From: a virus
DNA: 64,000 bases
Reading direction: 5' to 3' (one strand)
IMG/VR virus record: IMGVR_UViG_3300045988_154277
Each line of letters starts with the position of its first letter. Within the stretch, counting starts at the first letter, position 1. The notes beneath the pieces were generated by a model. It had not been told where the DNA came from and made no database searches. It saw only the letters and a program-made list of their open reading frames with translations. Shown one piece after another: positions 39,823 through 61,912 of this stretch. The position numbers and the translations under genes are program-made.

Positions 39823-39847
39823 TTAAGTAATATATACGTGAAAAACG
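39823..39847 (-). promoter_or_regulatory. Recurring TATATAT box (TTAAGTAATATATACGTGAAAAACG)
   Basis: 25-mer shared with the 47459 and 61830 copies. Adjacent to the hairpin at 39864-39899. Confidence 0.45.
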
Positions 39848-39863
39848 TTTCACTTACACTTTT

Positions 39864-39899
39864 AAATAAAGCGATACAGGAGTTGAGGGTTGCCCCTCA
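39864..39899 (-). terminator. Hairpin ATACAGGAGTTGAGGG-ttgc-CCCTCAACTCCTGTAT
   Basis: 16-bp perfect stem after the stop at 39920. Confidence 0.55.
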
Positions 39900-39919
39900 A
39901 CTCCTGTATCTTAATTACG

Positions 39920-42796
39920 TTAGAATGATGGTGGCGGTGGTGTTTCGTCGAAGTTCATGTCCTGAGGTTCTTGTGGTGTACCACCTTCCTCCGGAGCACT
40001 ACCTTGTCCTCCTCCACCTTGATCCACTTGGTCGAATGCCTGATCCAAGTCAGATGCTTGTTCCTCAGGATTCATAGTTCCACCTTCTTCTGGAGCTCCA
40101 CCCGTGGGTTGTTCTCCACCGAACTCATCGGTAGTTCCTCCCATATCGGATCCTCCACCCATATCACCGTACGGGTTATCACCTTGTTCTTCCAGGTGTT
40201 TCCTGGCTTCATCTACGACATATTTCTTGAAGTTATCGAACTTAAGCTTCTGGTTCGTAACGTAGTCGTAGAGATCGAATGCGTTCTTGATGTTGATATC
40301 CTTCGGGAATGGGATATCGAACGAACTCTGGAATCCAACTTGCTTGATGTAATCACGAATCATATCCGATTTAACGGTTTCTCGGAAGAGGGTGAACATC
40401 TCTTTCGCATCCTGATCCATGATCTGATTTTCATTGAAGATCATCTGCAGAACACGATCGATCGCATCCGCATACGAAGTGATCTCTTCGTACTGGGCTT
40501 TGTCGACCACGATCTGAGGAGCAGGCAAGGAAATCTTGATGTTCTTGATCACCGTCTGAAGTTGTTTCTTGATGGAGTCTTTGTTCAGCTCCACTTCCTG
40601 CTTCGACTTCGGAGGTTTCGGATCGGATCCTTCTGCTTCATTGGAAGCTTTCATATCCTTACGGCTCTTGGAAGAGGTCTTCAGGATCTCTTCGATCCTC
40701 TTCTGCAGTGGGGAGGAGTACTTGAGATATGTACGGATCAGCTTGTTTCCGAACTTGGTCGTCGTCTTCTGTTCTCCCTTGATCTTGTTGTTGTACATCA
40801 AGTTCGTAGTAGCAACAGAACGAGAGTATTCCTGTTCCCCTGTTTGGTTAAGAGCAGCATGAGGAACTTCCAACCCGGTGATGATCCAGTTGCTCAGCTG
40901 TTCCAGGAACGCCGTATCAGGAGAGATCGCATTCGCAGATTTCCTATCGGTTGTGATGTTGAGGTTCTCACGAAGTCCTTTCATGTTCTTCGGGAGCAAC
41001 GTAAGTGATCTCTGGAGGAGATCTCGTTGTACCGTCAACGGTTCGTTATCGAACCGCAACATCTTCTTCTCGATGAACGCATCTCGCACCATAGCGAGAT
41101 ACTGTGTGACGTTGGCGTTCTTCTCATCCACATCCACTTCGATGACTTTGTTGTCGATCGCATTCTCTGTGGCAGCCATGATACCGGAGATCAGAAGAAC
41201 CGTTCTCAAGGAGAGAAGTGTACTCAGATCCTCGATACGCGATTTACCAGTTCCATCGATGTGGTAATCATAAGCCATGTACACCATCATGGAAGCTGGG
41301 ACGAATACCAACCCTACTCTCTTACGATCCAAGAGATAACGGAAAAGACAGAGTGTCGTCGCTTCATGCTCTTCGATCGTAGCCCCTGAGAAACCATATT
41401 CTTCCAGTTTGTTGTTGAGCAGGTTCCTCATCGTAAGACCGAACATCATGGCAGTCGCTTTGAAGCGTTGATCGTCGTTGATGCCAGCTGCATATTTGTA
41501 CGCTGCTGGTTGACCGAATGTCGCCTGCATCGCACCTTCTGTCAACTTACGAGGACCGTTGTAGGTAGAACGATCGTAGACATGATCGGTCAATGGAGTA
41601 CCCCACTGGTTCACCAGAATGAAGTAACCGATGTGCTTATCGGGTGCACCAGGGATCGTCACTGGGATCACAGAGGAGTAAGGAAGATCAATCACGGTTG
41701 GATGGTGTTTCTCTTCCAAAGACTCTTCTGTATCGAGAAGATAAGTTGGATTAGCAGCATCCATCAAGAAATGTTCCAGAACTTTCTTCTCCATGTTCTT
41801 CGCAGCACCGTCGTAACGACTCTTCGTATTCAACTTCGTCGCATCGTACGTGATCACAACGGACTTCTTCGCTTCGGAGAACAGCTCCTTGATCGCTTTC
41901 TTGGTCTCTCTTGTGGTTGCAACTACCTCTGGATCTGTGAAGACCTCGTAAGACTTATCACTCAGTCTCCAATTTTCGAACATCTGATCGATATCTGCAT
42001 CGATCTTGTTGAGAAGATCATCATAGTGCTGTTTCTTACGACCCTCTGTTGGACGGATCGTTGGAATAAGCAACTCCATAGATGCGTCTTTGGCGTCGTA
42101 CATCATCGGTGGATCGTTATCATATTCCAGACGTTCACTTCCCATCGTGAAGTTGCCAGGGATCATCTGTTGATTCATCTGAGGATGATTGACATTCTTG
42201 ATGATCTCTTTGACATCGTGACCTGCTTTGATCTCATCGATATCCACCGCCGCATTCAGTGTATCGATATTCACCTGAGGTACTATGAGGATCGGAGAAG
42301 CGCCATCTTGGAAGATGGCTTTCTTCATCCAAGTCTTCATACGAGGAGCCAACTCAAACGTACCGTTGAAGAACTCAGTCAACTCAGAGGAGATCTTATC
42401 TTCGATATCCTGACCGAGATCGGTCTTCTCCAATAAGATCTGAATGCTGTTCGTCTGAAGATCGGTGGGACTGATCACAGAACTCACCCAGATATCGGCA
42501 GCGTCTTTCAGCTCAGGAGCCAACACCCCGAAACTTTGAGCAGTCCGAGACCAATTACCAGCCTGCTGAGAGATACCCAACAGCTGGTCAAGGAATTCAG
42601 AAGTGGAAGGAAGTTGTTCCGTATGGGAACCGTCGGGTGAGTAGATACCAGGAAGGTACCGCATCTCGGTTGGGGTATGAAGAGAGAGTTCGACATCCTG
42701 ATGTTGATCCTGTTCCGGGTTGTCTTCCGGGAACGAAACACCGAGGATTTTGCCTAACCTCTTCAGCCCTCTTGTAAAACTATTGTCTGTAGGCAT
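39920..42796 (-). CDS. Very large virion protein (958 aa) with an acidic Gly-rich C-terminus; portal-like or head-associated candidate
   Basis: Size and the acidic, disordered C-terminal tail (GGGSDMGG...EEGG...). Confidence 0.3.
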   Translation of the reverse strand: MPTDNSFTRGLKRLGKILGVSFPEDNPEQDQHQDVELSLHTPTEMRYLPGIYSPDGSHTEQLPSTSEFLDQLLGISQQAGNWSRTAQSFGVLAPELKDAADIWVSSVISPTDLQTNSIQILLEKTDLGQDIEDKISSELTEFFNGTFELAPRMKTWMKKAIFQDGASPILIVPQVNIDTLNAAVDIDEIKAGHDVKEIIKNVNHPQMNQQMIPGNFTMGSERLEYDNDPPMMYDAKDASMELLIPTIRPTEGRKKQHYDDLLNKIDADIDQMFENWRLSDKSYEVFTDPEVVATTRETKKAIKELFSEAKKSVVITYDATKLNTKSRYDGAAKNMEKKVLEHFLMDAANPTYLLDTEESLEEKHHPTVIDLPYSSVIPVTIPGAPDKHIGYFILVNQWGTPLTDHVYDRSTYNGPRKLTEGAMQATFGQPAAYKYAAGINDDQRFKATAMMFGLTMRNLLNNKLEEYGFSGATIEEHEATTLCLFRYLLDRKRVGLVFVPASMMVYMAYDYHIDGTGKSRIEDLSTLLSLRTVLLISGIMAATENAIDNKVIEVDVDEKNANVTQYLAMVRDAFIEKKMLRFDNEPLTVQRDLLQRSLTLLPKNMKGLRENLNITTDRKSANAISPDTAFLEQLSNWIITGLEVPHAALNQTGEQEYSRSVATTNLMYNNKIKGEQKTTTKFGNKLIRTYLKYSSPLQKRIEEILKTSSKSRKDMKASNEAEGSDPKPPKSKQEVELNKDSIKKQLQTVIKNIKISLPAPQIVVDKAQYEEITSYADAIDRVLQMIFNENQIMDQDAKEMFTLFRETVKSDMIRDYIKQVGFQSSFDIPFPKDINIKNAFDLYDYVTNQKLKFDNFKKYVVDEARKHLEEQGDNPYGDMGGGSDMGGTTDEFGGEQPTGGAPEEGGTMNPEEQASDLDQAFDQVDQGGGGQGSAPEEGGTPQEPQDMNFDETPPPPSF

Positions 42797-42829
42797 CCTA
42801 TGCTCAAACCTTTAAATTAGGAGGTTCAA

Positions 42830-45661
42830 TTGGTTCAGTTAGAATTATACATCAGGGAACCGATCAACTTCTTGAGGACTCTTACACTGAAGAACAGTCA
42901 CTTCGCTGATCTGATTTGGAAGAACGATGTACAACCTGAGTATCAGGATCGATTACCCACTGAGTTGAACCCGTATTACCGGCATATTCGTGGGGAATAT
43001 ATCCTTGCCAATGATACAACGGAAGTGTTCGGAGTTCAGATCCCGAATCATCGGATCTATCGACGTCTCGATGAGATGATTTACATCCAATCTCTCGATA
43101 CGCAACAGCAAGTTCCTTTTACCAAAGAGACGCTTGCTAAGCATCCGAAGACAGCTTCGTTGTATAGGATACCGAATTCCTATTACACAAAACTGTGCGA
43201 GAGCTACCCTCAATATAGCGACTTAATCAAGTCCATCGTGTATCCCATCCAAGAGGAAGTCTGGTGTCCAAGACACCAGCGTATGGAGACGATTGAAACA
43301 GCAGATAACTACACGATCTTCGGATATGATGAAGATATGTTCCAAGAGAACGAACGTACCTCAATCTACACGGCGCTTAAGACAACCCTTGAAATGGTTC
43401 GTGTCCGTTGGGATGTGAAGGAGTTCGACTACGAAGACATGTTCCCGATCGTACATCAGGGGATCTTGTGGCATCTTCTATATCTGACGATCTTCGGACA
43501 GAGGATCCTCAACGTCCGTACCTCCAAGGTACATGAGTTCCATATCTGGAGCTATCTCAATAGCAAGGGTATCGGTGATTACAGAGATGTTCTTTCTTTG
43601 AACCAGGCTCTGTTCTTGTACCGTAACATCAACTATCTGTTGAAGAACAAAGGAACTCAGAAGAACTTCAGTATCCTGATCGGTGCACTTCTCAGACCGA
43701 TGAATGTTTCTCTGTACAGCAAGTCTATCGTGCAGGATGTTACCAGAGGTACTTCTTCTGTTGTCACATCCGGTACAAGTGATGTTGATACGGTCGTTAA
43801 ACCGAAGACGGTTGTCTTGGATCACAACACGTTGAGCGCTTCGTTTTCGAACACTTGTAAACCGTATCCTCAGATCTTGTCGAATGTTGCTGGAGATGAT
43901 GCGATCATCGAACAGGCGGAATGTCTTGTGGATAACACCAGACATCGCGAGTATGGTAAAGCGGTTGATATCGTACAGAGGATCCTGAACCAGTACAAAA
44001 TGGGAGATGGATACACTCGGGTAGAGGAGATGAACACCGGTACGATCGAGGCAACATCGATCACGTACGATAAAGAACAGGAATCCTATCTGGAATACCA
44101 AGATGAGAACTTGTTTGAAGTATCTACTGACAAACAAGACCGTCGATTCGCTGTTACTCCTCACACTTTCTTAGATACGAAAGCTCACGAGATCGACAGA
44201 AACATCACGTCTACTCTGTATAACCAAGTGTATGCGAAGTTCGTTCAAGAGTCGATCTTGTACCGTGCATCCGAGAAAGACCTGAACTTCAGTATCATCA
44301 TAACTCCACCGGATACCAAAGTACCGCTTGCACTGGATGCAGATCAAGTGGTCGCTCTGTTGCTGTACTGTGCGTGTCGGGAAGTTGGGATCACTTTGGA
44401 GAAACCCCCTGTTGCTGCAGAAGTCATGTGGCCGTATAAGAAGGAGTTCCCGGAGATCCCTGAGATCTTCCACTATCAAGGGCACAAGAGACATACGAAA
44501 TCTTACCTCACGGATTACGGGTTTACCGATATGGTACCCTACCCCCTACCGCTCATCTCAGCGGACGATATGGCAGAAAAGATCCACAGCCAGGCGATCA
44601 ACTTTTTGCACAACTTCATCGAAGTGCATCGATCTGCATCATCGATCCACATGGAGATCTTGTTGAAGGTCTACCAGCAGAGATGCGTGAAAGGTTGGAT
44701 CCCGTTGAGTCTGATCAATAACATCCCATACACACAGTTCTTCCGTGTCGTAGATGGATTAGCAGATGTGATCGAACAGTACGACGCCAGTGTTGGTCCA
44801 GAACTGGAATATTCAAGGTTCTTCGATGCCTTAATGGAACAGTTCTATCCTGTGGATACTCCTCTTCTCCTGGAGAGTGAGACTGCTCTGAACGAGAAGT
44901 ATCGCAGAGTGAAACAGTTCTTCGTTGAGATGTGTTCGTACAACATCACGTTCTTCGATCACATCGAAGGGATGACGAACGTATCTCATACATTCTGGCA
45001 CAGTACGTTCGATGTACAGAAGAATATCCAGATCGCACGATTCGAATACATGTGGCATGAGTACTCCATGAAGTGGATGATCCATCATGTGTTCCAAGTC
45101 CCAACGGAACTACTGTTCCGTATGGATGTCCACGGACCTTACGAATACATCTATCGATACGTGTGGGAACTGTGTGATTTCACAGATATCAAACTGGAAC
45201 ATGTCATCCGAACTTACTTCACTTTGTGTGAACGAGATCTGGACATCTCCGGTAAGCTACAACCCAGATGGGAACGTCGCGATAACACGATCACCGATAC
45301 GATCCGAGTAGATCTCGGTGATGATCCGAATATGTACGATCATTACGATCTCACTCAAGAAGAACAAAGTCACTACATGGCTTGTCGTCAAGAGGATCGT
45401 GCGGATGGAAAACGTGTGAAGATATACACTCCATATCCTCAGCATGATCCGAATGATGGTGTGATCATTACCCATTTCAGCATGGGTGTTGAATCCTGGT
45501 CTCCATCGGGAAGTGTAACACCTGTATATCAGAACAACAATGTGGTTGAAGTAATCGAGGAGAAATCTCAATCGTGGAATGAGATCCCAGATTACAAGTT
45601 GATCACAGAGAATGAAACAACAACCTTTGAAAAGATTAACCATAACTACGTAGGAGTTTAA
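42830..45661 (+). CDS. Large hypothetical virion-associated protein (943 aa); TTG start
   Basis: AGGAGG lies 5 nt before TTG. Long ORF. Confidence 0.45.
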   Translation: MVQLELYIREPINFLRTLTLKNSHFADLIWKNDVQPEYQDRLPTELNPYYRHIRGEYILANDTTEVFGVQIPNHRIYRRLDEMIYIQSLDTQQQVPFTKETLAKHPKTASLYRIPNSYYTKLCESYPQYSDLIKSIVYPIQEEVWCPRHQRMETIETADNYTIFGYDEDMFQENERTSIYTALKTTLEMVRVRWDVKEFDYEDMFPIVHQGILWHLLYLTIFGQRILNVRTSKVHEFHIWSYLNSKGIGDYRDVLSLNQALFLYRNINYLLKNKGTQKNFSILIGALLRPMNVSLYSKSIVQDVTRGTSSVVTSGTSDVDTVVKPKTVVLDHNTLSASFSNTCKPYPQILSNVAGDDAIIEQAECLVDNTRHREYGKAVDIVQRILNQYKMGDGYTRVEEMNTGTIEATSITYDKEQESYLEYQDENLFEVSTDKQDRRFAVTPHTFLDTKAHEIDRNITSTLYNQVYAKFVQESILYRASEKDLNFSIIITPPDTKVPLALDADQVVALLLYCACREVGITLEKPPVAAEVMWPYKKEFPEIPEIFHYQGHKRHTKSYLTDYGFTDMVPYPLPLISADDMAEKIHSQAINFLHNFIEVHRSASSIHMEILLKVYQQRCVKGWIPLSLINNIPYTQFFRVVDGLADVIEQYDASVGPELEYSRFFDALMEQFYPVDTPLLLESETALNEKYRRVKQFFVEMCSYNITFFDHIEGMTNVSHTFWHSTFDVQKNIQIARFEYMWHEYSMKWMIHHVFQVPTELLFRMDVHGPYEYIYRYVWELCDFTDIKLEHVIRTYFTLCERDLDISGKLQPRWERRDNTITDTIRVDLGDDPNMYDHYDLTQEEQSHYMACRQEDRADGKRVKIYTPYPQHDPNDGVIITHFSMGVESWSPSGSVTPVYQNNNVVEVIEEKSQSWNEIPDYKLITENETTTFEKINHNYVGV

Positions 45662-46902: not shown

Positions 46903-47097
46903 CTACAGCGGCACGACAGTTACGTCACCAAGGAGATCCTGTTTTGTAACGGGAGTCTTGGCTAATGTATCCATCGACAACTTGTTCTCAGACATAGCTT
47001 TTGCTATACCTTTAAGAAACACAGTGGTTTGCGGTTTCTGAACGAGAGTTGGAATTGGAAGGGTGATTCCATTTCTAACGATAGTTCTTGTATACAT
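46903..47097 (-). CDS. Small 64-aa protein, tandem paralog 1
   Basis: RBS AAAGGAGGTG. About 50% identical to the 47204..47395 product (for example TPVTKQDLLGD against TPVTAQDLLVN). Confidence 0.5.
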   Translation of the reverse strand: MYTRTIVRNGITLPIPTLVQKPQTTVFLKGIAKAMSENKLSMDTLAKTPVTKQDLLGDVTVVPL

Positions 47098-47203: not shown

Positions 47204-47395
47204 TCAACCGAGTGGTGTGACAATGGCATTCACCAAGAGGTCCTGTGCTGTGACAGGAGTCCTAGCCAATTGATCCATCGTCGTCCGATTTTCTTTTAGA
47301 AGAGTTGCTGTCTTCTTCAAGAATGGTGTGACACGTGATTTCTGAGTAATCAGAGTGGGTACACGCACACGGGTCGAATTTGTATAGTGATTCAT
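47204..47395 (-). CDS. Small 63-aa protein, tandem paralog 2
   Basis: RBS AAAGGAGGTCC. The upstream region is duplicated too. Confidence 0.5.
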   Translation of the reverse strand: MNHYTNSTRVRVPTLITQKSRVTPFLKKTATLLKENRTTMDQLARTPVTAQDLLVNAIVTPLG

Positions 47396-47458: not shown

Positions 47459-47512
47459 CTCTGTCAGGTACTCATTAAGTAATATATACGTGAAAAACGA
47501 TGAACTACACTG
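47459..47512 (-). promoter_or_regulatory. 54-bp element identical to 61830-61883 (CTCTGTCAGGTACTCATTAAGTAATATATACGTGAAAAACGATGAACTACACTG); candidate late promoter
   Basis: Exact 54-mer repeat. Minus-strand reading: TTTTTCACGTATATATTACTTAATGAG. Confidence 0.45.
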
Positions 47513-47543
47513 AGGGTGCTGACTACGCACCCTCAGTGTAGTT
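47503..47543 (-). terminator. Hairpin AACTACACTGAGGGTGC-tgactac-GCACCCTCAGTGTAGTT (17-bp stem)
   Basis: Covaries with the 61874-61912 hairpin. Confidence 0.5.
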
Positions 47544-47566
47544 GTGTTATTATACAAAAAAGATAG

Positions 47567-47600
47567 TGATAACAGAGATGTCCGGACATCTCTGTTATCA
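47567..47600 (-). terminator. Rho-independent terminator TGATAACAGAGATGTCC-GGACATCTCTGTTATCA with an A/T run
   Basis: Perfect palindrome flanked by AAAAAAGA on the plus strand (a T-run on the minus strand) after the stop at 47615. Confidence 0.6.
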
Positions 47601-47614
47601 CTTAGTGTGTAAGG

Positions 47615-49856: not shown

Positions 49857-51347
49857 TTATGCAGCCACAGTGTTACCACTATAGCGCCCCCATACACACC
49901 AGTCATGTGTGAGAGGTAGAGCCAAGATACTTTCAACCACCAACTGAGACGGGTGTGCCTTGAGGAGTGCGACAGGCATATTCCGTCCACCTGTTGTCGA
50001 TTTGGTTTCTGTATTCTCCAGTGAGCGAAATCTCTTCGTGAGTACAGTCAGAAGACTATTGTCGTTGCAAATCGTTGGATTCGCACGGAACACGGAGTTC
50101 GCCATCATCCAGCTCTCTCCTTGAGAAGCTGTGGTGACGAATCGTTTCACCGTATCCGGTGTCAATCCTTCGTTCTTCGCATTGATCACTCCGAAAAGCT
50201 TCGTATTGATTGACGACACCAATGGTGCCATCAACTGACTCAACGAACCGATCTTCTTAGAGAACAAGTTCGTCGGTTCGTAACTGACGATCCACCGATC
50301 GATGTTGTAGAACACCTCTCGGAGAAGTTCGTAGATGCCGTTGACTTGGATGCCGATCGTAGCCAACTGATACTGTGCCGGTGGGTCCAGCAAAGTCGCA
50401 GTGGTCTCAAGATGCTTCTCTGCATTGTCGTAGAGCAGCTGAGCATTCGTAGTACTCGGATAGGTGTATTTGCCTAGCACGGTCTTGTAATAGACCGGGT
50501 GGGTCGCTATCAAATCACGTAATCCGAATCTCGTATACTCAGTGAGACACATCAGGTAAGATGCGATCACCCTTCTCTTGAAGAGATCGTCAAGACAGGA
50601 GTTGTGAACCTTAAGGTAGATATCTTCTCTGATCTCGATGTGAGAGTACTCGTTCGACTCTTCCATCTTCGGTACCAAGGAGATCTCTCCAGGCTGAAAC
50701 CCATAATACTGCATCGTCTTATCGAACGATAGTTCGACCAGATGATACAGGATGATTGGGGTAACACCAGCCTTCTTCCCGCGTCCTCTCTTTCCTTGAT
50801 GGATCTTCACTGTGGGTACGATCTCACGACATACTCTGCCGTCAGTCGTTGTGAAGACGAACTGCTCTGATCTTCTGAAAGTCAATGGTGCACGCATGAC
50901 TTTAATGATCAGACCATCTTGGATACGATGAAGACCGCCGCGCTCTACGATGGCGAACATCGGGAAATATTGCGTGTCGGATAGGATCACCGCTCCATGA
51001 TCCAGATAAGGGATACTGATGTGCAGTGGGTATTGCACATTTTCGAACTCGAAGATGAACTTCAACTGTTCGAATGAACTCTTCTGGATTTGGATCTTCT
51101 TCTTCAGGATCGTGTTGTTACGGATATACTCGATACGCTCGTCAGGAGTTAACCGTTGATACCCAATATAACGTAATCGACCTTTGAAAAGCTTTACTGA
51201 TTCTTGGAACATCACATCGAGATAATCAGGTATCTTCTTAATACTGTTCTCTCTGAAGTGAAGGAGGAAGTCGTCGTTGAAATCCGGGAGCAGATCACTT
51301 GCTCCGATCAGGACATTCCTCAGTACTGGATTGAAATGTTCATCCAC
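49857..51347 (-). CDS. Hypothetical protein (496 aa)
   Basis: ORF co-directional with the 51376.. gene. Confidence 0.45.
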   Translation of the reverse strand: MDEHFNPVLRNVLIGASDLLPDFNDDFLLHFRENSIKKIPDYLDVMFQESVKLFKGRLRYIGYQRLTPDERIEYIRNNTILKKKIQIQKSSFEQLKFIFEFENVQYPLHISIPYLDHGAVILSDTQYFPMFAIVERGGLHRIQDGLIIKVMRAPLTFRRSEQFVFTTTDGRVCREIVPTVKIHQGKRGRGKKAGVTPIILYHLVELSFDKTMQYYGFQPGEISLVPKMEESNEYSHIEIREDIYLKVHNSCLDDLFKRRVIASYLMCLTEYTRFGLRDLIATHPVYYKTVLGKYTYPSTTNAQLLYDNAEKHLETTATLLDPPAQYQLATIGIQVNGIYELLREVFYNIDRWIVSYEPTNLFSKKIGSLSQLMAPLVSSINTKLFGVINAKNEGLTPDTVKRFVTTASQGESWMMANSVFRANPTICNDNSLLTVLTKRFRSLENTETKSTTGGRNMPVALLKAHPSQLVVESILALPLTHDWCVWGRYSGNTVAA

Positions 51348-51375: not shown

Positions 51376-52560
51376 CTACTTTGCCCCAGTCTTCATTTTG
51401 ACATAAGCTTCCAACAACTTCACGATGCCCCCGATCACTACGGGGACAGAAGCTGCTACTGCTACATGCCACAACTTGATCTGGGACTCCGCTACCTTAT
51501 TGTCTGATATCGTGACGTTGTTGTCCGATATCTTAGACTTCGTTTCAGTCTCTTTGCGTCTGGCGTTGATATCGCCAAGATCCGCTTGCGTCTTATGGTC
51601 TCCGATGATCGTGTTATATTGATCTCGATATCGATCACGTTCTGCAGTTGTCTGCTCTAGCGTGATCTTCAACTTATCACGCTCTACCTTAAGACCCTCG
51701 ATCGTCACTTTATTACGATCTTCGATTTCAGCGGTTACTTGTTTCTCTCGGTTCTTGAGATCTTGTTCTGTGATCTTACGATACTCACGCTTAAATCGTT
51801 GTGCTTCTCTTCTTGATGTTGCGATGGCTAGATTCAGATTGGAATGTAGTTCGATCACATCGACTGGTTCCTTCGGATCTAACATCGCTTCCAACGATTC
51901 TGTATACGTCATCACTTCACCACCTAACGTCATAGTGGTATAGATCGCACATTGATTGGTGATATCGAGTTGATGAGTGATCGGGATCTCAAAGATCTCA
52001 TCGAACATCACACCATACATCACATCTGTGTTCAGTTTCCGGAACGGATCGTTCACTACGAATTGAACCGTAGGACGATCCTCACGGGTTGCACTGATCT
52101 CACTTTCCGCATTGTTCAGCAGTTGGGCGTAGTTCATGCTGCTATACGGGTGGCTCACAAGATCCGCTCGATCACGGAGACAGATCACCACATTCAGTTC
52201 CTGGATGTAGACTTGGAACTCATTGATCAACAGATTCATCGGGATCGAGATCACGTAGCCTTTCATCAAGACCTGAGTACCATCGTCTTTGATGGATTTA
52301 CCAACAACAGAACGGACGGTGATCGTCACCTGCTGACGTCCGAAGAAGTGCATGTTGCCAGAACACTCCGGAGGCAGGTCAGTTCTCTTCCCACTGAAAT
52401 CAATCACACAGAGATTGGTCGTGCTCGTATTCGAATACGAGATCTCCGTGTAATAGTGGGTTCTAGTCGAAGTTAGCGAGCCCAACGCATCCGCTTGTTC
52501 GACCTTGTAGGGGTTGTCGTTGTACATGGATGATATCCTTTGGTTGATTTGATTGAACAT
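51376..52560 (-). CDS. Hypothetical coiled-coil protein with a C-terminal TM anchor (start approximate)
   Basis: C-terminal VAVAASVPVVIGGIVKLL. The longest ORF runs into the TATATAT box, so the true start is probably an internal Met. Confidence 0.4.
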   Translation of the reverse strand: MFNQINQRISSMYNDNPYKVEQADALGSLTSTRTHYYTEISYSNTSTTNLCVIDFSGKRTDLPPECSGNMHFFGRQQVTITVRSVVGKSIKDDGTQVLMKGYVISIPMNLLINEFQVYIQELNVVICLRDRADLVSHPYSSMNYAQLLNNAESEISATREDRPTVQFVVNDPFRKLNTDVMYGVMFDEIFEIPITHQLDITNQCAIYTTMTLGGEVMTYTESLEAMLDPKEPVDVIELHSNLNLAIATSRREAQRFKREYRKITEQDLKNREKQVTAEIEDRNKVTIEGLKVERDKLKITLEQTTAERDRYRDQYNTIIGDHKTQADLGDINARRKETETKSKISDNNVTISDNKVAESQIKLWHVAVAASVPVVIGGIVKLLEAYVKMKTGAK

Positions 52561-52569
52561 ACTTTCTAG

Positions 52570-54469: not shown

Positions 54470-57400
54470 TTAGAGGTTGGTATCGAGCATCATCGATTGA
54501 AGGAGTTTACTTCCCACTACAGATGCTCGAGTACGACTATTCGGATCGATCGTATCCAGATCAGCTTCTCCGTTCTCTTCCAACATCCTGCGGAACTCGC
54601 TATACCCGTGGATGTTACCACCACGGATGTTCACCAATTCCTGCATCGTCTTGCTGAGTCCACGAGCAGCGAGGATCTGGATCTCCGGGTTCGTGATGGA
54701 ACAAGCGCGACTGTCACCAGTAACTTGCCCAGTCAACCCATCGATCGTCCGATCATTATCCGGAACTGAAATCTTCTCATCCAAGAACTGTTGTTGTCTT
54801 CGGATGGGGAGTTTCACGAACATATACTTGTTGTCGGTCAGATACTTACGACCAGTTGCACGGTCATACATCCAAACACGTTGGAAGAGATCCAACCCGA
54901 TCATATCACAAGCTTTCAGAAGATCTTCGTTCTGCAAGTTCACGATCATGTTGGGAGCGACGATGTGGAGCTGCCACTTGCCTTCCTTCATGTAGTTCAT
55001 GAACTGATCAAACTCTTTGTCATTCATCTGTCCTATGATCTGACGATACCGTTTGGAGTTCAGTCCGGACGGTTCCATCGTATCACAGAGCTTACAGATG
55101 TAGTCCAAGATCTCCTTCTTTTTCTGAGCGATCTTGGATGATGCGGTTGATGCTTCCATAGAAGAACCTAATTGTTCTGTTGACGATTGAGACTCCGAAT
55201 CAAAAGAAGTACATTCCAATGATTCGACAGCTGGTCCGAACTGTTTTACCATACTTGGATCAAACTTAGTTTCCCAAGTCACAGTGATCTTCTGTTTCGA
55301 AGTGTACTTCAATGGTTCATCATCCACATATCGACACTCACGTTTCGTATCTCCACCACCAAACGTTTTTAACTTAGACTTTACATCATCAGTCAGTTTG
55401 ATAGAGTAAAGATACCCAGTGGATTCACCATGTGTTTCTTTAAACGTCTTTGCGTTGTGATACACAGTGATGTGTTTTGGAATTGTATTAAGTTTGGAGA
55501 CGTCTTGTTTCCAAACATCATAACTCCAATGAATAGAACGATAACCGTGGTTCTCTTCTCCATACAAATCTTGTTTGTTTATGATGAAGATAGAAGCGAT
55601 CCCTTTCAGAGGAGAAAGGAAGATTGACTTCTTATATTGAGAAGCTCGTCCATAACCTTTCAGTTCTGTCAGATCGTTTGGAGATCCATGATAGAGTTCA
55701 TCACCCCATGTTTTCATCTGAGCAGAAGTTAGCTTTTCAGCTGACATCTTCAGCACATCAGTCTTCAAGACCATCAAGTACATCTTCTCTCTAGTTTCTA
55801 CAATCTTGAATCCCATAGACTCATACAGATGACACACCTTCTGGTTCGTCTTGTACGCACAGATGTAGATCTCAGTTGTGATTGGGTTGTGTTTCAGCAC
55901 ATATTGAATCGTAGCAGATACACTCTGCTTACCATAGCCCTTTCCCTGATACTTGGGGAAGATACCGAGATTAAACAAATCCACGGTGTTGTCTTTATAG
56001 AACATCACACCGATCGATCCGATCACCTCTGATCCATGCATCAACAAGAAGAACTGACGTCCTTTCTTCAGATCAGCTTTGACATCACTCGGAGTCCATT
56101 TCTTATAGTCATCTGGATCGTCGTCAATCAGATCAGCTGTATCTGTCACATACTTGACTTCTACCTGATTGGATAGATCCAGTTCCTTCAAAGTAATGGA
56201 ACTAGCTGGTAACGTCAGAGATTCAAGACTTATAGGTAACACTTCCATAGACACATGGACAACATCGCCTTCCAATTCCAGACTGGCTAAAGACTTAGAC
56301 ATCCTTTTTGGTTTCGGGGCTTTCCCTCCAGTCAGTTTTGGATTATGAACGTATTGTACATCCACATTGGTGTAAGTATTTGGTTGTATCCCATTAATAC
56401 TCAAATGATTTGGATCACCAGTGTATCTTAGGATAGTCTTCTTGTCTGATACTGTTTCCGAAAGAAAGTCTTGTGTACAGCGGTTTGTTGGAACTTTGTA
56501 AACATCGACCGACACAGTCTGCGTTGGCTTACAACGATATCTCCAATTAGGTTTTCCAATATCGTTGTATTCAACGATGATCAGAGAGTTGTGAAGATTG
56601 ACCTGTTTTGGTATAATGTTAAACAGAACAGTTCCACGTTTCATATTCCAAGTTGCAGTTTTAGCACCAAGCGCAACAGCATAATTGCTATCTGCACACA
56701 CTAGAATTCTATTCCCTACCTTAGGAAGATCCGTTCCACCTGCTGGAATACCAACGTAAACAGGTTTCCCCTTAACGTCAACCACTTCAACTTCGCCAGC
56801 CTGGACATTAGCTGCCTTTTCCTCTGACACCACGCAATCCTCAGGGATATCCAACGACTCAAAACCACGGAAGAACGCTTTCACGTTCTCACGTTCTTTC
56901 TTATCAACGATCTGATCGAACTGGTCTCCGGACCACTGCATGATATCCTCCATACGGGTTGAGAGGTTCGCTTCCTTGCCGGTATCAAGAACCAGACTGA
57001 TGATTTCACAATCTGTATCCTGACCGATACGGTGCACACGGTCAGATGCCTGCTGATACTCGATCGATCTCCAAGGTTTGTTCAGGAAAATCACTGTGTT
57101 GGCAGCCGTCAAGGTTGCTCCAGTACTCAACATCTTCAAAGATGCGATCAATGGATTCAACGACTGATCCTCTTGGAACCGTTTTACCGTGTTAGTCAGT
57201 TCAGAAGCTGTTTTACCGTATACAGCAAGTGGAGAATACCCTTCCTTCTGGAAGTAGTTATAAGCCAACTCGATCGTATCCACATAAGACGTGAATACAA
57301 CAGTCTTCTTCATGGCATCATCCACATACTGCTTCAGATCAGCAGCTTGCATCATCTCAGAGGTCATCTGCATACGGAGATGTGTCAATAAGGTACCGAT

Positions 57401-59623
57401 CACCTCTCCTTTGATCTTGAGAGGAAGGTACTTCACAACAGACTTCGACCAGATGAACTTCTTCTTGAGATCATCAGGAAGAGCAGGGATCAGAACGTCG
57501 CGTTCATACTGATTCGCCCAAACGATATCAGCGTTACCACGAGCATCAACGATATTCGAGTTGCGCAACTCGTCGATGATGTTCATATACCGTTGGAACT
57601 CAGGTTGATCACCGATACCAGGTTCATTCTGCAACCATTCGATCGCGTCTTCGAATGCTGTGATATACGCTGTGAGATTCTGTTGATAATAATCCTGTCG
57701 TTCTTTGACGAAGGTAATGATCTGTTTCTCCACTTGGGATACCGTATACTTCCATCCTGTTGACATACGGACAGAGACCGTTGTTTCTTTCTTCTCAGGA
57801 AGTGACAAGATATCCTTCGTAACACGAGTGATCATACGAGTGAGTCTTGCATTTAAGACGTCGTTTGCGATCGCCGTGTTGAAACCGAATGTCGCTTTGA
57901 AGATCGCACATGCTTCATCATCGAAGTAAGGATCCAAAACAGACATGATCGGGATGAGTTCGACTCCTGCGCACTTGATGGGCGTGCCACTGAGCAAGAG
58001 TAGATCTGCATTCTGATTGTATCTGGCAAGATCCAACAACAACTGTGTACGAAGAGACGAAGTTCTCAGGAAGTTATGAGACTCATCTACGATTACACCG
58101 AGGTTGTTGAGTTTGTTCTTGATCAAGAACTCTTTCACTTCTTCGATCCTCTCATAGTTCACGATGATCCATCGGGAGGATGTAGTGAGAGGACCTTTGG
58201 TATACCCAGCAACCCACACCTTCTGTTTTTGGTTGAAGAACTTAATCAGATGTGTGTTCCAAGTCTCCAACATCGTGTTCTTCGGACAGATGATAACGAC
58301 ATGTTCTTTCTTCAGAGCTGTCATCAACCCTAGAGCTGTGATCGTCTTACCAAGTCCTTGTTCGAAGGACAACAGATAACCTCTCAGGTGGTTCGTCGTC
58401 TTATTGGTTACATAGTTCTTGATGAACTCGATCTGATGCTCATAGAACTTGGCGTTGATCTCTCTATTGAGAACAGTCAGATCTGCGAATTCTGTCGGTT
58501 GAACAGCAGTACCTACCCAAGTATGACTTTTGATCGTATCGGTTAAGCTAACAGGGAATTGAAACTTATCCAAAAGATAGATGAGTTCCGGTATGAAGAA
58601 CTTATGGATACTGATCGTTCTCTTCTGAGCGAAGAAGAACCGGATACCGATCACCTTGAACAGGTGTTCCAGTTTCGTAGTTTTATACTCTTTGCGGAGT
58701 TTGTTGAAGAACTGGATCACCGGAAAGTTCCGTATCGTGTAATACATCCCCTCTTCCACAACAGGATCGAACAACCCTTCTGAAGATATCACAATAGCTT
58801 CAGTAGATGTGGTTTCCTCTCCGACCTGCGAAGTCACACTCATCTTAAGCTTAGGCGGATCCGGGATCGGCTCGCTGCTCTGAACATAGAGTTTAGATGG
58901 GATCCACATCAAGCAAGCTTCCAACACTTGAGTATATCTCGGACCATAAGACCAACGTTTGTCTTTGTTCTTCAGCCACCAGTCTTTCGCGGTATCACCC
59001 ATCTCGATACCAACAGCAGCCCAGTCAGCTACCATTTCACCGAGAGCCATCAGGATCGCAGGATGCCCTCCCTTATCCTTATATGCATCCTTCAGTTTTT
59101 CATCTGAGATCACCCACTGTTCTTTCTCAGGATCCGGACGATGCATATAGTTCTCAGGGTGATGGTCGTTGAGTTGGTGGTGCTTAGGCCATTCAATCTC
59201 TTCATAGACTCGCTTTGCTTCTGGAGAGATCTCATAGAGATCCTTATACTTATAAAGCGGAGCATTCAGTGCGAAAGACGCAACATGTTCGTTCCCTTGA
59301 AGCTTATCGTAATCATGCTGTTGGACTTTGGCGATGAACCGATCGAAATATCCTCCGAACTGGAAGAACTCGCGAAGGTAGTTCGCGCAGATCTTCACAT
59401 TCTCAACGTGGTTCTTCGTCCTTTGAATATGGTAACGTAAGATCCACTGAGCCAATTCAGCATCCGACAGAACAGTGTTGTTCTTCGTGATACAGGACTC
59501 GATGATCTTTAATACAGTTCTGTTAGGATCACACTCGATCAGTACTTGACCGCCTTTTTTAGACAGGTTGTTATAGTACATCGTATCGAATGGGACCTGT
59601 TTGAAATTGAGTTGGTCACTCAT
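54470..59623 (-). CDS. Giant multidomain protein (1717 aa): SNF2-family helicase plus GNAT acetyltransferase plus uncharacterised N- and C-terminal regions
   Basis: Helicase motifs LLSFEQGLGKTITALG (I), VIVDESHNF (II, DExH), LLLSGTPI (III) and QASDRVHRIGQ (VI). GNAT motif A IFPKYQGKGYGKQ and motif B HLYESMGFKIV. RBS AAGGAGG. Confidence 0.75.
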   Translation of the reverse strand: MSDQLNFKQVPFDTMYYNNLSKKGGQVLIECDPNRTVLKIIESCITKNNTVLSDAELAQWILRYHIQRTKNHVENVKICANYLREFFQFGGYFDRFIAKVQQHDYDKLQGNEHVASFALNAPLYKYKDLYEISPEAKRVYEEIEWPKHHQLNDHHPENYMHRPDPEKEQWVISDEKLKDAYKDKGGHPAILMALGEMVADWAAVGIEMGDTAKDWWLKNKDKRWSYGPRYTQVLEACLMWIPSKLYVQSSEPIPDPPKLKMSVTSQVGEETTSTEAIVISSEGLFDPVVEEGMYYTIRNFPVIQFFNKLRKEYKTTKLEHLFKVIGIRFFFAQKRTISIHKFFIPELIYLLDKFQFPVSLTDTIKSHTWVGTAVQPTEFADLTVLNREINAKFYEHQIEFIKNYVTNKTTNHLRGYLLSFEQGLGKTITALGLMTALKKEHVVIICPKNTMLETWNTHLIKFFNQKQKVWVAGYTKGPLTTSSRWIIVNYERIEEVKEFLIKNKLNNLGVIVDESHNFLRTSSLRTQLLLDLARYNQNADLLLLSGTPIKCAGVELIPIMSVLDPYFDDEACAIFKATFGFNTAIANDVLNARLTRMITRVTKDILSLPEKKETTVSVRMSTGWKYTVSQVEKQIITFVKERQDYYQQNLTAYITAFEDAIEWLQNEPGIGDQPEFQRYMNIIDELRNSNIVDARGNADIVWANQYERDVLIPALPDDLKKKFIWSKSVVKYLPLKIKGEVIGTLLTHLRMQMTSEMMQAADLKQYVDDAMKKTVVFTSYVDTIELAYNYFQKEGYSPLAVYGKTASELTNTVKRFQEDQSLNPLIASLKMLSTGATLTAANTVIFLNKPWRSIEYQQASDRVHRIGQDTDCEIISLVLDTGKEANLSTRMEDIMQWSGDQFDQIVDKKERENVKAFFRGFESLDIPEDCVVSEEKAANVQAGEVEVVDVKGKPVYVGIPAGGTDLPKVGNRILVCADSNYAVALGAKTATWNMKRGTVLFNIIPKQVNLHNSLIIVEYNDIGKPNWRYRCKPTQTVSVDVYKVPTNRCTQDFLSETVSDKKTILRYTGDPNHLSINGIQPNTYTNVDVQYVHNPKLTGGKAPKPKRMSKSLASLELEGDVVHVSMEVLPISLESLTLPASSITLKELDLSNQVEVKYVTDTADLIDDDPDDYKKWTPSDVKADLKKGRQFFLLMHGSEVIGSIGVMFYKDNTVDLFNLGIFPKYQGKGYGKQSVSATIQYVLKHNPITTEIYICAYKTNQKVCHLYESMGFKIVETREKMYLMVLKTDVLKMSAEKLTSAQMKTWGDELYHGSPNDLTELKGYGRASQYKKSIFLSPLKGIASIFIINKQDLYGEENHGYRSIHWSYDVWKQDVSKLNTIPKHITVYHNAKTFKETHGESTGYLYSIKLTDDVKSKLKTFGGGDTKRECRYVDDEPLKYTSKQKITVTWETKFDPSMVKQFGPAVESLECTSFDSESQSSTEQLGSSMEASTASSKIAQKKKEILDYICKLCDTMEPSGLNSKRYRQIIGQMNDKEFDQFMNYMKEGKWQLHIVAPNMIVNLQNEDLLKACDMIGLDLFQRVWMYDRATGRKYLTDNKYMFVKLPIRRQQQFLDEKISVPDNDRTIDGLTGQVTGDSRACSITNPEIQILAARGLSKTMQELVNIRGGNIHGYSEFRRMLEENGEADLDTIDPNSRTRASVVGSKLLQSMMLDTNL

Positions 59624-59680
59624 CAGTAACCTCCTTGGTTCGACATATCTATTGTGAATTGCATAGCATGCCTGAACATC

Positions 59681-59717: not shown

Positions 59718-59734
59718 GTTAGGGTCGATATATC

Positions 59735-60520
59735 TTACATATTGTTCAGTGTACTGCAGATCGCTCTTACAGTACTGATCTCCTGGCGCACTACAAGATC
59801 AGAGAAGTTCAACCAGCATACAGCACATTTACGAATATCTCGTACCGTGCTATCGTTCGATGTGCGAAGCTTCGTATTGTATTCATTTACAACACGATTA
59901 CCAGCATCATCAAGTTTCCAACTGATATCATCCATCTGCAGAACGATAGACTGCATCCGTTTCACGGCTTGTTCAGAACTCCATTTGGAAGATTTGAACT
60001 TGACGACGGGACGAGCCACTCGCGGATCGAAGGTCAAATCATCGTTCTTGTCCAGATAGAAGTTCTTCTGACCGTTCAGAATGGTACGGATCGTTGCAAG
60101 CAATTTCACCATAGAAGTATGCTTCAACGGATCGATACCGACGAAGCCTTGGGTCACTTTCGTAGTAGCCAAAACGAGAGCTTGGATATCCTCGTACTTG
60201 TAGGGATCGGTTTCTTTCTCGGCAAGACGTTTAGGATCCAAGCTGTTCAGCCAATCATAGTAACCTTCGAATGTTTGATTGATTCCATTTTGCCAATTCT
60301 GTTTCTGCTGAGCTCTTCGACGTTCAGCACGCTCTTTCTGTTTCTTGCGGAACCACTCGATAAGATTGGAGATGATACCCTCTTCCGAGATGTAGAGAGA
60401 CTCGGTTCCGATGAATAACTCATCTGGAATACGATCCGATGTGACCGTTTGCATACGTACGTCGAACGATGGATCATTCGTGGTTTTGTTCAGGATATCA
60501 CCCAGGTGAAGATCGATCAT
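59735..60520 (-). CDS. Hypothetical protein (start moved to MIDLHLG)
   Basis: AAGGAG 6 nt before the internal ATG. Confidence 0.45.
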   Translation of the reverse strand: MIDLHLGDILNKTTNDPSFDVRMQTVTSDRIPDELFIGTESLYISEEGIISNLIEWFRKKQKERAERRRAQQKQNWQNGINQTFEGYYDWLNSLDPKRLAEKETDPYKYEDIQALVLATTKVTQGFVGIDPLKHTSMVKLLATIRTILNGQKNFYLDKNDDLTFDPRVARPVVKFKSSKWSSEQAVKRMQSIVLQMDDISWKLDDAGNRVVNEYNTKLRTSNDSTVRDIRKCAVCWLNFSDLVVRQEISTVRAICSTLNNM

Positions 60521-60677
60521 AGTAAACTCCTTGATGTTGATAGTTACATAGGATGCTCTGTGCATCAAACGTTCTTCAAACAAAAAGAAAACATCAATAC
60601 CATCGAATACAGGAGGAGTCTCCAGCTCCTCCTGGGTTGCGTTGTTGATGTTCAGCTATAAACTAAGATAGGTTAGG

Positions 60678-60833
60678 TTACGCTACCTTAAATTCACAGT
60701 TGTAGGTACGACCAGTTAGCCAGACCTCGTATTGGATCTTGCGAACCGCCAATTGTGATGCGACAAAGGCATCGTAACCTTGATCCAAGTAATGTTGGTT
60801 CAAGGTATAATACCGTTGTGCAAATTCGGACAT
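60678..60833 (-). CDS. Small 51-aa hypothetical protein
   Basis: Perfect RBS AAAGGAGGTGAG before MSEFAQRYY. Confidence 0.4.
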   Translation of the reverse strand: MSEFAQRYYTLNQHYLDQGYDAFVASQLAVRKIQYEVWLTGRTYNCEFKVA

Positions 60834-60941
60834 AAACTCACCTCCTTTCAAAGTTAGTAGTTTGGAAACATGTTGACAATGCAACATAGCGACCTGTGTG
60901 GGTGTAGGGATGTTCGCGCATCCCTACACCCACACACCTAT

Positions 60942-61478
60942 TTACGCATCCACGTGAAGCTTATATTCCCTACACACTCGATATAATTCCCAGATGTCCT
61001 GATCGTCCAGATGTTCGAACTCCGCATGGAGACATTTCGTCTTAACGGAGGTTATCTCATCTCTCTTGTTCGATCTCAGGAACCAGAATAACATGATCCC
61101 AGTCAAATTACTGGTCAATGCTCTCTCGTATTTCTTGAGAGCGATGTCCTGGTAGAAGAGATCGCGTGTTGGGAAGGACGATGTGATATCATCCTTCTCA
61201 TCATAGAACGGGATGTTGATCGATCCAAGGAGATGCGATTCATCATCCCCGTGAGTTAAATAGGATACCACATACGGGTACACTTCCTCATCAGGACGAT
61301 ATTCGATAATGATCTCATCAACTTTGGGTTTGTCACACTCCGGGCACTTGCTGTATTTGTCAGCTATGTGTTCCCGAATGACCTTCTCCAATCTGTCACG
61401 AGAGGTGATTCCCGGCATCAAAATGTTGTTGACATCTCCAGTGGGTGCTCCATAGAACGTTCTGTAAATAGCGTGCAT
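60942..61478 (-). CDS. Hypothetical protein
   Basis: ORF with a CPECDKP zinc-knuckle-like pair. Confidence 0.4.
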   Translation of the reverse strand: MHAIYRTFYGAPTGDVNNILMPGITSRDRLEKVIREHIADKYSKCPECDKPKVDEIIIEYRPDEEVYPYVVSYLTHGDDESHLLGSINIPFYDEKDDITSSFPTRDLFYQDIALKKYERALTSNLTGIMLFWFLRSNKRDEITSVKTKCLHAEFEHLDDQDIWELYRVCREYKLHVDA

Positions 61479-61829
61479 TTTCTTTTCCTTTTTAGTTATT
61501 GATTATACATGTTGTGAGTACCTGCAGAGTTACATATCCGGACTAGACGTTAGTAATCAACGCCTTTGGAAGGTTGTCCCAAGTGCTTTGGGGCATTCCA
61601 AACTCCTGAACAAAGAACTGCTCAGTGCGTTTGAGATCTCTCCCAAGAAGCAAGTAGACGCTCCGCATATGGACGACTGCAGGATGCAATCCCCATTTCG
61701 AATTAGCCATTGCCATTCGACACCACCGTCCTTTCTGATCTCTTCTTTGAACTACGTGATCAACGTAGGTTCTTGCGATGCTGGTTACATCGCAAGGGTC
61801 GTGGATGAAGTTGTGTAGGAACGATATGT

Positions 61830-61883
61830 CTCTGTCAGGTACTCATTAAGTAATATATACGTGAAAAACGATGAACTACACTG
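61830..61883 (-). promoter_or_regulatory. Second copy of the identical 54-bp TATATAT-box element
   Basis: Exact match to 47459-47512. Confidence 0.45.
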
Positions 61884-61912
61884 GGTAGGATCATCTCCTA
61901 CCCAGTGTAGTT
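61874..61912 (-). terminator. Hairpin AACTACACTGGGTAGGA-tcatc-TCCTACCCAGTGTAGTT
   Basis: 17-bp stem. The outer 10 bp are identical to the 47503 hairpin and the inner 7 bp carry compensatory changes. Confidence 0.5.

Follow-up and report, generated by a model that had tools for sequence, protein, structure and literature searches.

The DNA analyzed here is a stretch of 64,000 nucleotides from a virus (IMG/VR record IMGVR_UViG_3300045988_154277), which in its full length is referred to below as the window. The element of interest is a TATATAT-centered box that occurs six times in it, always on the minus strand, in an intergenic position and upstream of minus-strand genes (6/6). Upstream of each of the six boxes on that strand stands a perfect hairpin with a 15-18-bp stem. 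Open reading frames (ORFs) of 57-90 amino acids follow five of the boxes. The remaining box heads an operon made up of 51376-52527 (383 amino acids) and 49857-51347, the second gene encoding a homolog of the non-virion RNA polymerase (nvRNAP) subunit PHIKZ123 of phage phiKZ. None of the boxes (0/6) is found on the plus strand, which carries the sheath, tube and gp128-like genes. Two minus-strand virion genes (958 and 584 amino acids) do sit upstream of a box, with a terminator hairpin between gene and box.

The boxes, their upstream element and the hairpins

Read on the plus strand, the box is the 20-mer TAAGTAATATATACGTGAAA; its minus-strand reading is TTTCACGTATATATTACTTA. A search for the 20-mer that allowed three mismatches returned exact copies at 39824, 47476 and 61847 and a copy with 2 mismatches at 52569; the same search returned 0 matches in 100 shuffles. 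A weight matrix of 36 columns was then constructed from 22 sites (this phage and two relatives), the columns of the AGTGTA element described below being excluded. Exactly six sites exceeded 8 bits in the 128 kb scanned (the window, both strands). All were on the minus strand, with site ends at 61850, 47479, 39827, 24076, 52572 and 29802, and their scores were 27.7-43.5 bits; the maximum in shuffled windows was 5-12 bits. These six are the four copies and two variants that had been listed in an earlier sequence-only reading of the window. The coordinates given there were near-exact, except that the 39-kb hairpin ends at 39910 and not at 39899. Three degenerate boxes that had been proposed in addition (at about 59645, 49415 and 12495) scored < 8 bits, within the shuffled range, and are not copies of the motif.

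The core TTTCNNN-TATATAT(T/A)AC is present in all six boxes; its main form is TATATATTAC, and two variants carry TATATATAAC. TATATAT(T/A)AC occurs in 6/6 copies in the window and in 26/26 of all copies collected, the latter figure being a product of construction, as the core was the search anchor. TTTC(A/G) stands directly upstream of the core in every copy, and the consensus of the window and relative copies is AGTGTAGTTCAAAAWATTTCRNNTATATATWAC-TTnnGTGA. The six sites, all on the minus strand, were designated as putative early promoters. P61 (61850-61882) reads AGTGTAGTTCATCGTTTTTCACGTATATATTAC and has the highest score, 43.5 bits; P47 (47479-47511) is a 33-mer identical to it. P39 (39827-39860; AGTGTAAGTGAAACGTTTTTCACGTATATATTAC; 35.1 bits) has its AGTGTA outside the hairpin, and P52 (52572-52588; 31.0 bits) consists of the core only, TTTCACGTATATATTAC, without AGTGTA. 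The TATATATAAC variants are P24 (24076-24108; AGTGTAGTTCAAAATATTTCGAATATATATAAC; 35.1 bits) and P29 (29802-29835; AGTGTATTTGAAAGTATTTTGGCTTATATATAAC; 27.7 bits). A Shine-Dalgarno sequence and a start codon follow 36-174 nt downstream on the same strand in 23/26 copies (this phage and two relatives), and the seventh position after the box is a purine in 24/26. The direction of the box, formerly regarded as unclear, was settled as minus by these downstream start signals and by the asymmetry of the AGTGTA...TTTCA flank.

That flank contains a second conserved block. AGTGTA lies 10-11 nt upstream of TTTC in 5/6 window copies and in all four matches to the 17-mer core in a relative contig. Both sets were ascertained without reference to AGTGTA, and the chance of its occurrence is ca. 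5e-4 per site. As a bipartite pattern, AGTGTA-N10-11-TTT-N4-TATATATWAC was found 5 times in the window (0 expected). The relationship of the element to the hairpins differs from copy to copy: it forms the outer portion of the hairpin 3' arm at P61, P47 and three loci outside the window (L012, L034 and L035), overlaps the stem by 2-3 nt at P24 and P29, and stands outside any hairpin at P39 and six further loci (L005, L007, L040, L041, L045 and L050). Because of the last group, the element was assigned to the promoter. GTGTAG as a general hairpin motif was not enriched (32 occurrences v. ~28 expected). P52 and several copies in relatives are without AGTGTA, so the element must be optional. This AGTGTAG(TT) upstream element is a new detail, missing from published early-motif logos, and a modest addition to them.

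Hairpins were sought throughout the window as perfect stems of >= 11 bp with loops of <= 10 nt. The scan returned 25, compared to ~0.2 estimated by chance. All but one (24/25) are intergenic and lie 3-20 nt past a stop codon; six are located between convergent genes, and most have a T-rich tail on the transcribed strand (5-10 T in 15 nt). Only 7/25 adjoin the six boxes. The hairpins are thus a separate, genome-wide class of gene-end elements, and the "composite" of hairpin and box that had been described earlier is a juxtaposition of two independent elements, a gene-end hairpin of the upstream transcription unit and, after it, the promoter of the next. A search of the window against Rfam matched no family.

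The pairing of each box with a long, perfect hairpin, also noted earlier, was borne out at every site (all coordinates on the minus strand). At P61, the hairpin (61874-61912; 17-bp perfect stem, 5-nt loop, z-score -7.25) has as its 3' arm the AGTGTAGTT element of the promoter, and the P47 hairpin (47503-47543; 17-bp stem, 7-nt loop) overlaps the same element. Just upstream of the latter, so that a tandem pair results at 47.5 kb, is a canonical intrinsic-terminator-like hairpin (47565-47602), a 19-bp palindrome followed by ATCTTTTTTG that ends a gene of 566 amino acids. The terminator hairpin near P39 (39873-39910; 17 bp, then GCTTTATTT; z-score -8.5) follows the 958-amino-acid virion structural gene, and that near P52 (52658-52693; an 18-bp palindrome, then ATATATTTCT) marks the end of a gene of 585 amino acids. 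An 18-bp palindrome (24107-24142) abuts P24. At P29, the hairpin (29833-29871; 15 bp, 9-nt loop) follows the 584-amino-acid virion structural gene and overlaps the AGT of the promoter's AGTGTA. Folding z-scores of the box-associated hairpins ranged from -4.7 to -10.7. A terminator consensus scan of the minus strand reported 47543-47503, 61912-61874, 52693-52658, 59722-59688, 47602-47565 and 46556-46519.

Variation among strains and relatives

Four loci were aligned with their counterparts from gut metagenomes, using 10-12 strains per locus. The strings AGTGTAGTTCA, TTTCACG and TATATAT-AC were invariant. Variation was concentrated in the spacer (TCGTT v. ACGGA), the W position (T v. A), the leader and, above all, the hairpin loops; the T/A alternation at the W position is the same as that among the paralogous copies. 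P61 was invariant in 12 strains except for one N position; the stem of its hairpin did not vary at all, and only the loop differed. At P47, the only variable parts were the leader, the W position (T/A) and the spacer (TCGTT/ACGGA); the upstream hairpin at 47565-47602 was invariant in 11 strains. P39 was conserved in 11 strains. At the P29 locus, also in 11 strains, only one spacer base and two loop bases varied.

Base pairing in the 47-kb hairpin (47503-47543) was maintained without exception. Among seven haplotypes, two strains had substitutions with full compensation (in one case A-T became G-C, in the other G-C became A-T), there was no one-sided change, and 119/119 pair cells were paired. 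The pairs were counted on the 47-kb haplotypes alone, because a joint MAFFT alignment of the 47- and 61-kb copies put the inner stems out of register. One uncompensated change was found in the 39-kb stem, at the penultimate outer pair. In the relative represented by a 361-kb contig (67-70% amino-acid identity), the P61 ortholog (L034) keeps the arrangement, although the outer and inner stem sequences differ (GATCTACACTGGGGTAG/CTACCCCAGTGTAGATC v. AACTACACTGGGTAGGA/TCCTACCCAGTGTAGTT in the window). That hairpins are kept at gene ends across ~70% protein divergence argues for function. Near-identical copies of P24 are present in a relative contig (L005 and L045).

Loop orientation was compared against loci L079-L109. 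The 47-kb loop (47520-47526) was encountered in both orientations among strains, as GTAGTCA and GTCGTCA v. TGACTAC and TGACGAC, with the same internal polymorphism present in both. The 39-kb loop (39890-39893) is GCAA and is inverted to TTGC in one strain; the 61-kb loop (61891-61895) is of the GGTGA type or approximately of the TCACC type. Loops in both orientations imply that the arms recombine or template-switch at the DNA level, and do so recurrently. As such a process would also carry a mutation from one arm to the other, and as the stems are without G-U pairs, compensatory change alone is no proof of selection on RNA structure.

The 47- and 61-kb copies share an exact 54-mer (47459-47512 and 61830-61883, minus strand; repeat-finder family D6) at loci 14 kb apart, as had been reported before. 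Besides the box and the spacer, it takes in ca. 20 nt of leader and the outer arm of the stem. The adjoining stems also read as claimed, with a kept outer part and fully complementary inner arms: AACTACACTG-AGGGTGC/GCACCCT-CAGTGTAGTT v. AACTACACTG-GGTAGGA/TCCTACC-CAGTGTAGTT. The outer stem would be conserved because the promoter fixes CAGTGTAGTT and the requirement for a hairpin fixes its complement, AACTACACTG; the inner 7 bp and the loop may vary freely provided that pairing holds. The ca. 20-nt leader of the 54-mer is not conserved among the other copies, and in 4/10 other strains the two copies within one genome, at 47 and 61 kb, do not agree in spacer, leader and W position. From the leader identity and these strain differences, the identity of the 54-mers reflects paralogy and probably copy-to-copy exchange, not constraint alone. 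The sequence-only reading had argued for selection on structure rather than recent copying. That contrast was drawn too sharply: the 54-mers are paralogs, their identity is not universal among strains, and loops invert. Each of the two alternatives, structure selection and copying, holds in part.

Beyond the window, four exact matches to the 17-mer core were found in the 197-kb contig IMGVR_UViG_3300045988_142450, in which one locus is 96.8% identical to 60958-63008 of the window. The bipartite pattern was found 7 times in this contig and 12 times in the 361-kb contig from the same sample, whose genes are ~60-87% identical to those of the window by translated comparison; elsewhere in IMG/VR, it occurred as singletons only. 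In 596 Gb of bacterial and archaeal genomes there were 28 singletons, close to the chance expectation, which is estimated at ~17 or more. A chance-control pattern with TATATAWAC, of similar information content, had 0 matches in the window and 20 unrelated singletons in IMG/VR. Since clusters are limited to related phage contigs, the motif is specific to a phage clade and does not represent a mobile repeat from cellular genomes. When 8 kb were compared to GenBank phages by megablast, no match was obtained, and blastn with a 50-nt promoter consensus produced chance matches only. According to exact-protein look-ups, the phage recurs in many human-gut metagenomes as contigs of ~277-281 kb; the window matches scaffold_10 of ena:ERZ28568400 (278,450 bp).

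Promoter class and alternative explanations

Judged by its genes, the phage is a deep-branching, uncultured phiKZ-like jumbo phage of the human gut, and it is probably nucleus-forming. The PHIKZ123 homolog (49857-51347, minus strand) matched PDB 7ogp_E (E 2.7e-11) and phrog_2943, and its relative in Erwinia phage RAY is annotated "putative nvRNAP beta subunit 1". A PhuZ tubulin homolog (11400-12458) and an S80 prohead protease (18216-19007) are encoded on the minus strand. Genes for the sheath (35742-37868), the tube (37879-38907) and a PHIKZ128-like virion protein (42830-45661) are on the plus strand. The sheath contains the Pfam domain phiKZ_gp29PR; in a comparison with 218 jumbo-phage sheaths, its identity did not exceed 26%.

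The genes after P47 (46562-47395, minus strand) are small and early-type, encoding 63, 64 and 81 amino acids. The first two, 47204-47395 and 46903-47097, are tandem paralogs directly after the promoter. The exact 63-amino-acid ORF was present in 2 contigs only, as opposed to >100 collection index blocks for neighboring genes, and the tandem pair are fast-evolving, putatively early genes. The first ORF after P61 (61543-61716, minus strand; 57 amino acids) was called in 10 strains.

In every jumbo phage with its own multisubunit RNA polymerases (RNAPs), early operons are reported to have upstream a highly conserved AT-rich motif, centered near -10 and recognizable by bioinformatics, that is read by the virion RNAP (vRNAP) (PMC7598289). 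The early motif is TATATTAC in phiKZ, TTAWTAVAA_HYWTTTRARR_BTATATTACDWHDGTG in 201phi2-1, BSHAWWWWWTTTYARRYAKATATTATYWWADTG in OBP and TBYAWWWWWTTTCARRYAKATATTATYWAAGTGWA in N1M2, with TTTCARRYAKATATTATYWAAGTG shared by the latter two (PMC7058600 Table 2); in AR9, it is AAATATATATTAT-(6N)-G(+1) (PMC5312081). For phiKZ, an extended -10 has been reported, accompanied by a T-rich block that lies upstream of -19 (PMC8244752). The box has several features in common with this class: the AT-rich core TATAT[T/A]A[C/T], present here as a TATATTAC / ATATATTAT-type core of ~10 nt; a TTTCA block just upstream (TTTCARR in OBP/N1M2) and a GTGA-like stretch just downstream; and intergenic sites co-oriented with the genes, before small hypothetical and nvRNAP genes. 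Six copies per 64 kb are also consistent with the 31-41 per genome in N1M2, phiKZ and AR9. The differences are a core that is two bases longer (TATATATWAC), the extra AGTGTA(G/A) element, and the source, a deep-branching, uncultured gut lineage.

Taken together, these data lead us to regard the box as an early-gene promoter of a phiKZ-like jumbo phage and the adjoining hairpins as gene-end terminators, with a probability of roughly 0.8. The signal is most likely one of a known kind in a new lineage, the type of RNAP being assigned by homology. By homology with phiKZ, 201phi2-1, OBP/N1M2 and AR9, a multisubunit vRNAP, injected with the DNA, would recognize TTTCNNN-TATATAT(T/A)AC. By analogy to AR9, transcription would start at the purine ca. 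7 nt after the final C (for P61, a start near 61843 is predicted). This placement would put the AT-rich block at ca. -16 to -7, the T-rich block at ca. -23 and, in most copies of the clade, AGTGTA(G/A), 10-11 nt before TTTC, at ca. -40 to -34. The transcripts would cover the small early genes and at least one nvRNAP subunit. Where an early unit has another unit before it on its own strand, a hairpin would adjoin the box, and in several copies the descending arm of the terminator would be the AGTGTAG(TT) element itself. As to their function, the hairpins most likely act as intrinsic terminators for the transcription unit before them. The earlier proposal of a terminator-then-promoter unit with maintained stem pairing is thus supported for the minus strand, the two compensated substitutions in seven haplotypes included.

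Several points weigh against this interpretation. The polymerase, the start site, the early timing and the termination are all things that we infer. No vRNAP subunit was detected in the 64-kb window when its large ORFs were searched against PHROGs, Pfam and PDB. In 201phi2-1, some nvRNAP genes have no early promoter; the argument from gene context is therefore soft. In the hairpins at 47503 and 61874, the T-run begins 5 nt past the stem, and one of the two follows a canonical terminator, so termination is perhaps not their only role. Finally, the stems (15-19 bp, all Watson-Crick, no G-U pairs) exceed typical intrinsic terminators in length; long, perfect stems together with the loop inversions suggest that DNA-level processes help to keep them perfect.

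These last features are also what favors another role for the hairpins, i.e. as stabilizers of RNA 3' ends, processing sites (e.g. of the RNase III type) or cruciform sites, a view that would leave the promoter reading unchanged. The tandem pair at 47.5 kb and the loop inversions, which show that the DNA arms interact, can be cited for it as well. Such a role is unlikely overall, although it retains appreciable weight: 24/25 hairpins come right after stop codons, including those of convergent genes, most are T-rich-tailed, and the experimentally mapped terminators of phiKZ and 201phi2-1 are stem-loops in the same kind of position. Each of these two phages has >130 stem-loop terminators (PMC10914365, PMC11512511), in which a hairpin is followed by TTAT. 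Like the present hairpins, they are numerous, stand after genes and in some cases serve convergent genes bidirectionally, and the tails are comparable (T-rich or TTAT-like here, e.g. GCTTTATTT at 39873). The stems in the window differ in being 15-19 bp long and perfect, in lacking a common motif and in that some include the promoter's upstream element.

Promoters of other kinds were considered for the box. In the sequence-only reading it had been likened to T4-type late promoters, in which a TATAAATA-like -10 box is read by host RNAP with a gp55-type late sigma factor (gp55/gp33/gp45-dependent in T4) and drives late genes. The likeness amounts to a short, AT-rich, TATA-centered box in a large lytic phage, and two of the upstream neighbor genes are indeed virion structural genes. 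This assignment is scarcely credible, however. TATAAATA has 0 occurrences in 64 kb on either strand; the structural genes in question lie upstream of the boxes, beyond a terminator hairpin, and no box is found on the plus strand; the conserved region spans ~17-33 nt and not 8 nt; and the motif matches the phiKZ-like early class, in which temporal class and polymerase differ from those of T4 late promoters, while phiKZ-like late promoters are TATG-type. A promoter for the host RNAP, whether it relies on a sigma factor of the host or on an extended -10 element of host type, is very improbable too. TATAAC and TATTAC do resemble a -10 hexamer. Against this, no sigma-70 two-hexamer call fell on any box (19 calls in the window v. 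28.8 in shuffled sequence), and phiKZ transcription is independent of host RNAP (PMC7598289). Moreover, the TATAT(T/A)A(C/T) core is common to jumbo phages of Pseudomonas, Klebsiella and Bacillus and to this gut phage, from which it follows that the motif tracks phage lineage, not host. It is also improbable that the box serves the nvRNAP as a promoter of another temporal class, middle or continuous. Several 201phi2-1 genes have an unexpected promoter class, but the box does not resemble what has been published for middle and late promoters of phiKZ-like phages (TACT plus an A-run at -22 and TATG at +1, respectively), and for the late class a separate motif, CTATGC, which precedes other genes in the window by 21-43 nt, is the better candidate.

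Coliphage N4 offers a different precedent for hairpins near promoters. Its vRNAP is a single-subunit enzyme that recognizes a short hairpin (~5-7-bp stem, 3-nt loop) within the promoter. An injected virion polymerase and a nearby hairpin are the points of likeness to N4 early promoters. The hairpins here, in contrast, have 15-19 bp, lie upstream of ca. -34, where they precede the AGTGTA element or overlap that element only, and are absent or distant at P52, P39, L040 and L041; in several copies, the hairpin is missing or at least 60 nt away. Since the hairpin is not contained in the promoter and does not accompany every copy, a hairpin promoter of the N4 type was excluded.

Lastly, hairpin and box could primarily be a mobile or recombinogenic cassette, resembling a miniature inverted-repeat transposable element (MITE) or the promoter-early stem-loop (PeSL) of T4-like phages, with the copies having arisen by spread. 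The identical 54-mer at two loci 14 kb apart is in keeping with this, as are the strain-specific spacer and leader at 47 kb, which suggest exchange between copies, the loops inverted between strains, and an insertion hotspot at the end of the 39-kb early operon (TnpB or extra genes in some strains). In PeSLs, a terminator stem-loop followed by an early promoter is likewise repeated between small early genes (PMC2839356, PMC4122927), and near-identical copies at distant loci, with six composites in the window, add to the likeness; PeSL promoters, however, are of the sigma-70 type and host-RNAP-read, whereas the box here is of the jumbo-phage vRNAP type. A primarily mobile cassette is nonetheless a most unlikely explanation. 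The same positions are occupied in all strains examined and in the relative with ~70% amino-acid identity, terminal inverted repeats and target-site duplications are lacking, the pattern does not cluster in cellular genomes, and the association with strand and gene start is strict. The one strain difference near a hairpin that was examined is a deletion inside a gene, with no cassette-bounded swap. A MITE-like repeat in unrelated contexts, which the sequence-only reading had named as grounds for abandoning its proposal, was not seen; clusters of the pattern were confined to two jumbo-phage contigs, which are related, and its positions are fixed among strains.

An extended version of the early-promoter reading may be entertained tentatively, and we consider it doubtful as a whole. 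In it, the early promoter of the clade would be bipartite, with AGTGTAG(TT) at ca. -40 contacted by the vRNAP and built into the terminator arm, so that termination and initiation would be coupled; cassettes would exchange sequence between loci and loops would flip through recombination of the arms, making these units PeSL-like portable modules in a nucleus-forming phage.

Other features of the window and significance

A second candidate promoter motif, CTATGC (extended, CATSCTATGY), precedes five gene starts by 21-43 nt, in the orientation of the gene in each case: 59666, 49336, 21617 and 14698 on the minus strand and 42798 on the plus strand. It is also present ~34 nt upstream of the start of 59735-60520 (minus strand). 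Intergenic DNA accounts for 9% of the window and for 8/14 occurrences of CTATGC, which resembles the phiKZ late TATG(+1). At 59.6 and 49.3 kb, CTATGC surpasses the degenerate boxes as a promoter candidate.

Other features were noted in or near leaders. In the leader of P61 (~61745-61775, minus strand) there is a 9-10-bp hairpin, CTTGCGATG...CATCGCAAG, one pair of which is C-G, A-U or U-A across strains; a second, invariant 6-bp hairpin follows, and this may be a structured element of the 5' untranslated region (5'UTR). In contig IMGVR_UViG_3300045988_142450 (L007, ~20-85, minus strand), an early promoter is followed ~3 nt on by a 12-bp hairpin and a T8 run, an arrangement that points to a very short early RNA or to attenuation, as at the 5'UTR terminators reported for phiKZ. 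The intergenic leaders of genes for 453 and 489 amino acids contain, at 23106-23118 and 29467-29479 (minus strand), a G-run (8-11 G), then TAACA and a stretch rich in C. Strains have G-runs of unequal length (G8-G11), and the tract could be slippage-prone or an assembly artefact.

Three observations concern proteins and gene content. The product of 54470-59623 (minus strand; 1717 amino acids) unites a helicase of the SNF2 family with a GNAT acetyltransferase and, at the C-terminal end, a region matching a PHROG labeled "RNA polymerase beta subunit"; its called length is 1477-1717 amino acids among strains. The proteins encoded by 12559-13965 and 21707-23068 (minus strand) are paralogs, 30% identical, that have a HEC(K/R)HL motif in common and almost identical last ~20 residues. 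Their C-termini fall in a 102-nt DNA repeat that is 81% identical (12545-12646 / 21693-21794), as might be expected from gene conversion or from a C-terminal signal common to both. The interval that separates the 39-kb early operon from the tail-tube gene is an insertion hotspot: a gene for an IS605-type TnpB (Cas12f-like; L098, 2166-3183) is present there in one strain, and an extra gene for 212-245 amino acids in two (L094, 2158-2895; L099, 2158-2796). The equivalent position in the window is ~38910-39130, and the hotspot adjoins a hairpin at 38919-38956.

Neither the AGTGTAG element nor the flipping of hairpin loops introduces a new principle; both are small additions. The wider value of the analysis is a testable promoter model, comprising a ~33-nt consensus and predicted start sites, for an uncultured, ~278-kb phiKZ-like phage of many gut metagenomes. 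With it, early operons, and hence candidate host-takeover genes, may be delimited directly from the genome sequence, and gut metatranscriptomes may be mined for 5' ends at defined positions. The persistence of the TATAT(T/A)AC core in a lineage whose sheath is ~25% identical to that of any cultured relative would be useful for understanding promoter recognition by sigma-less, split RNA polymerases.

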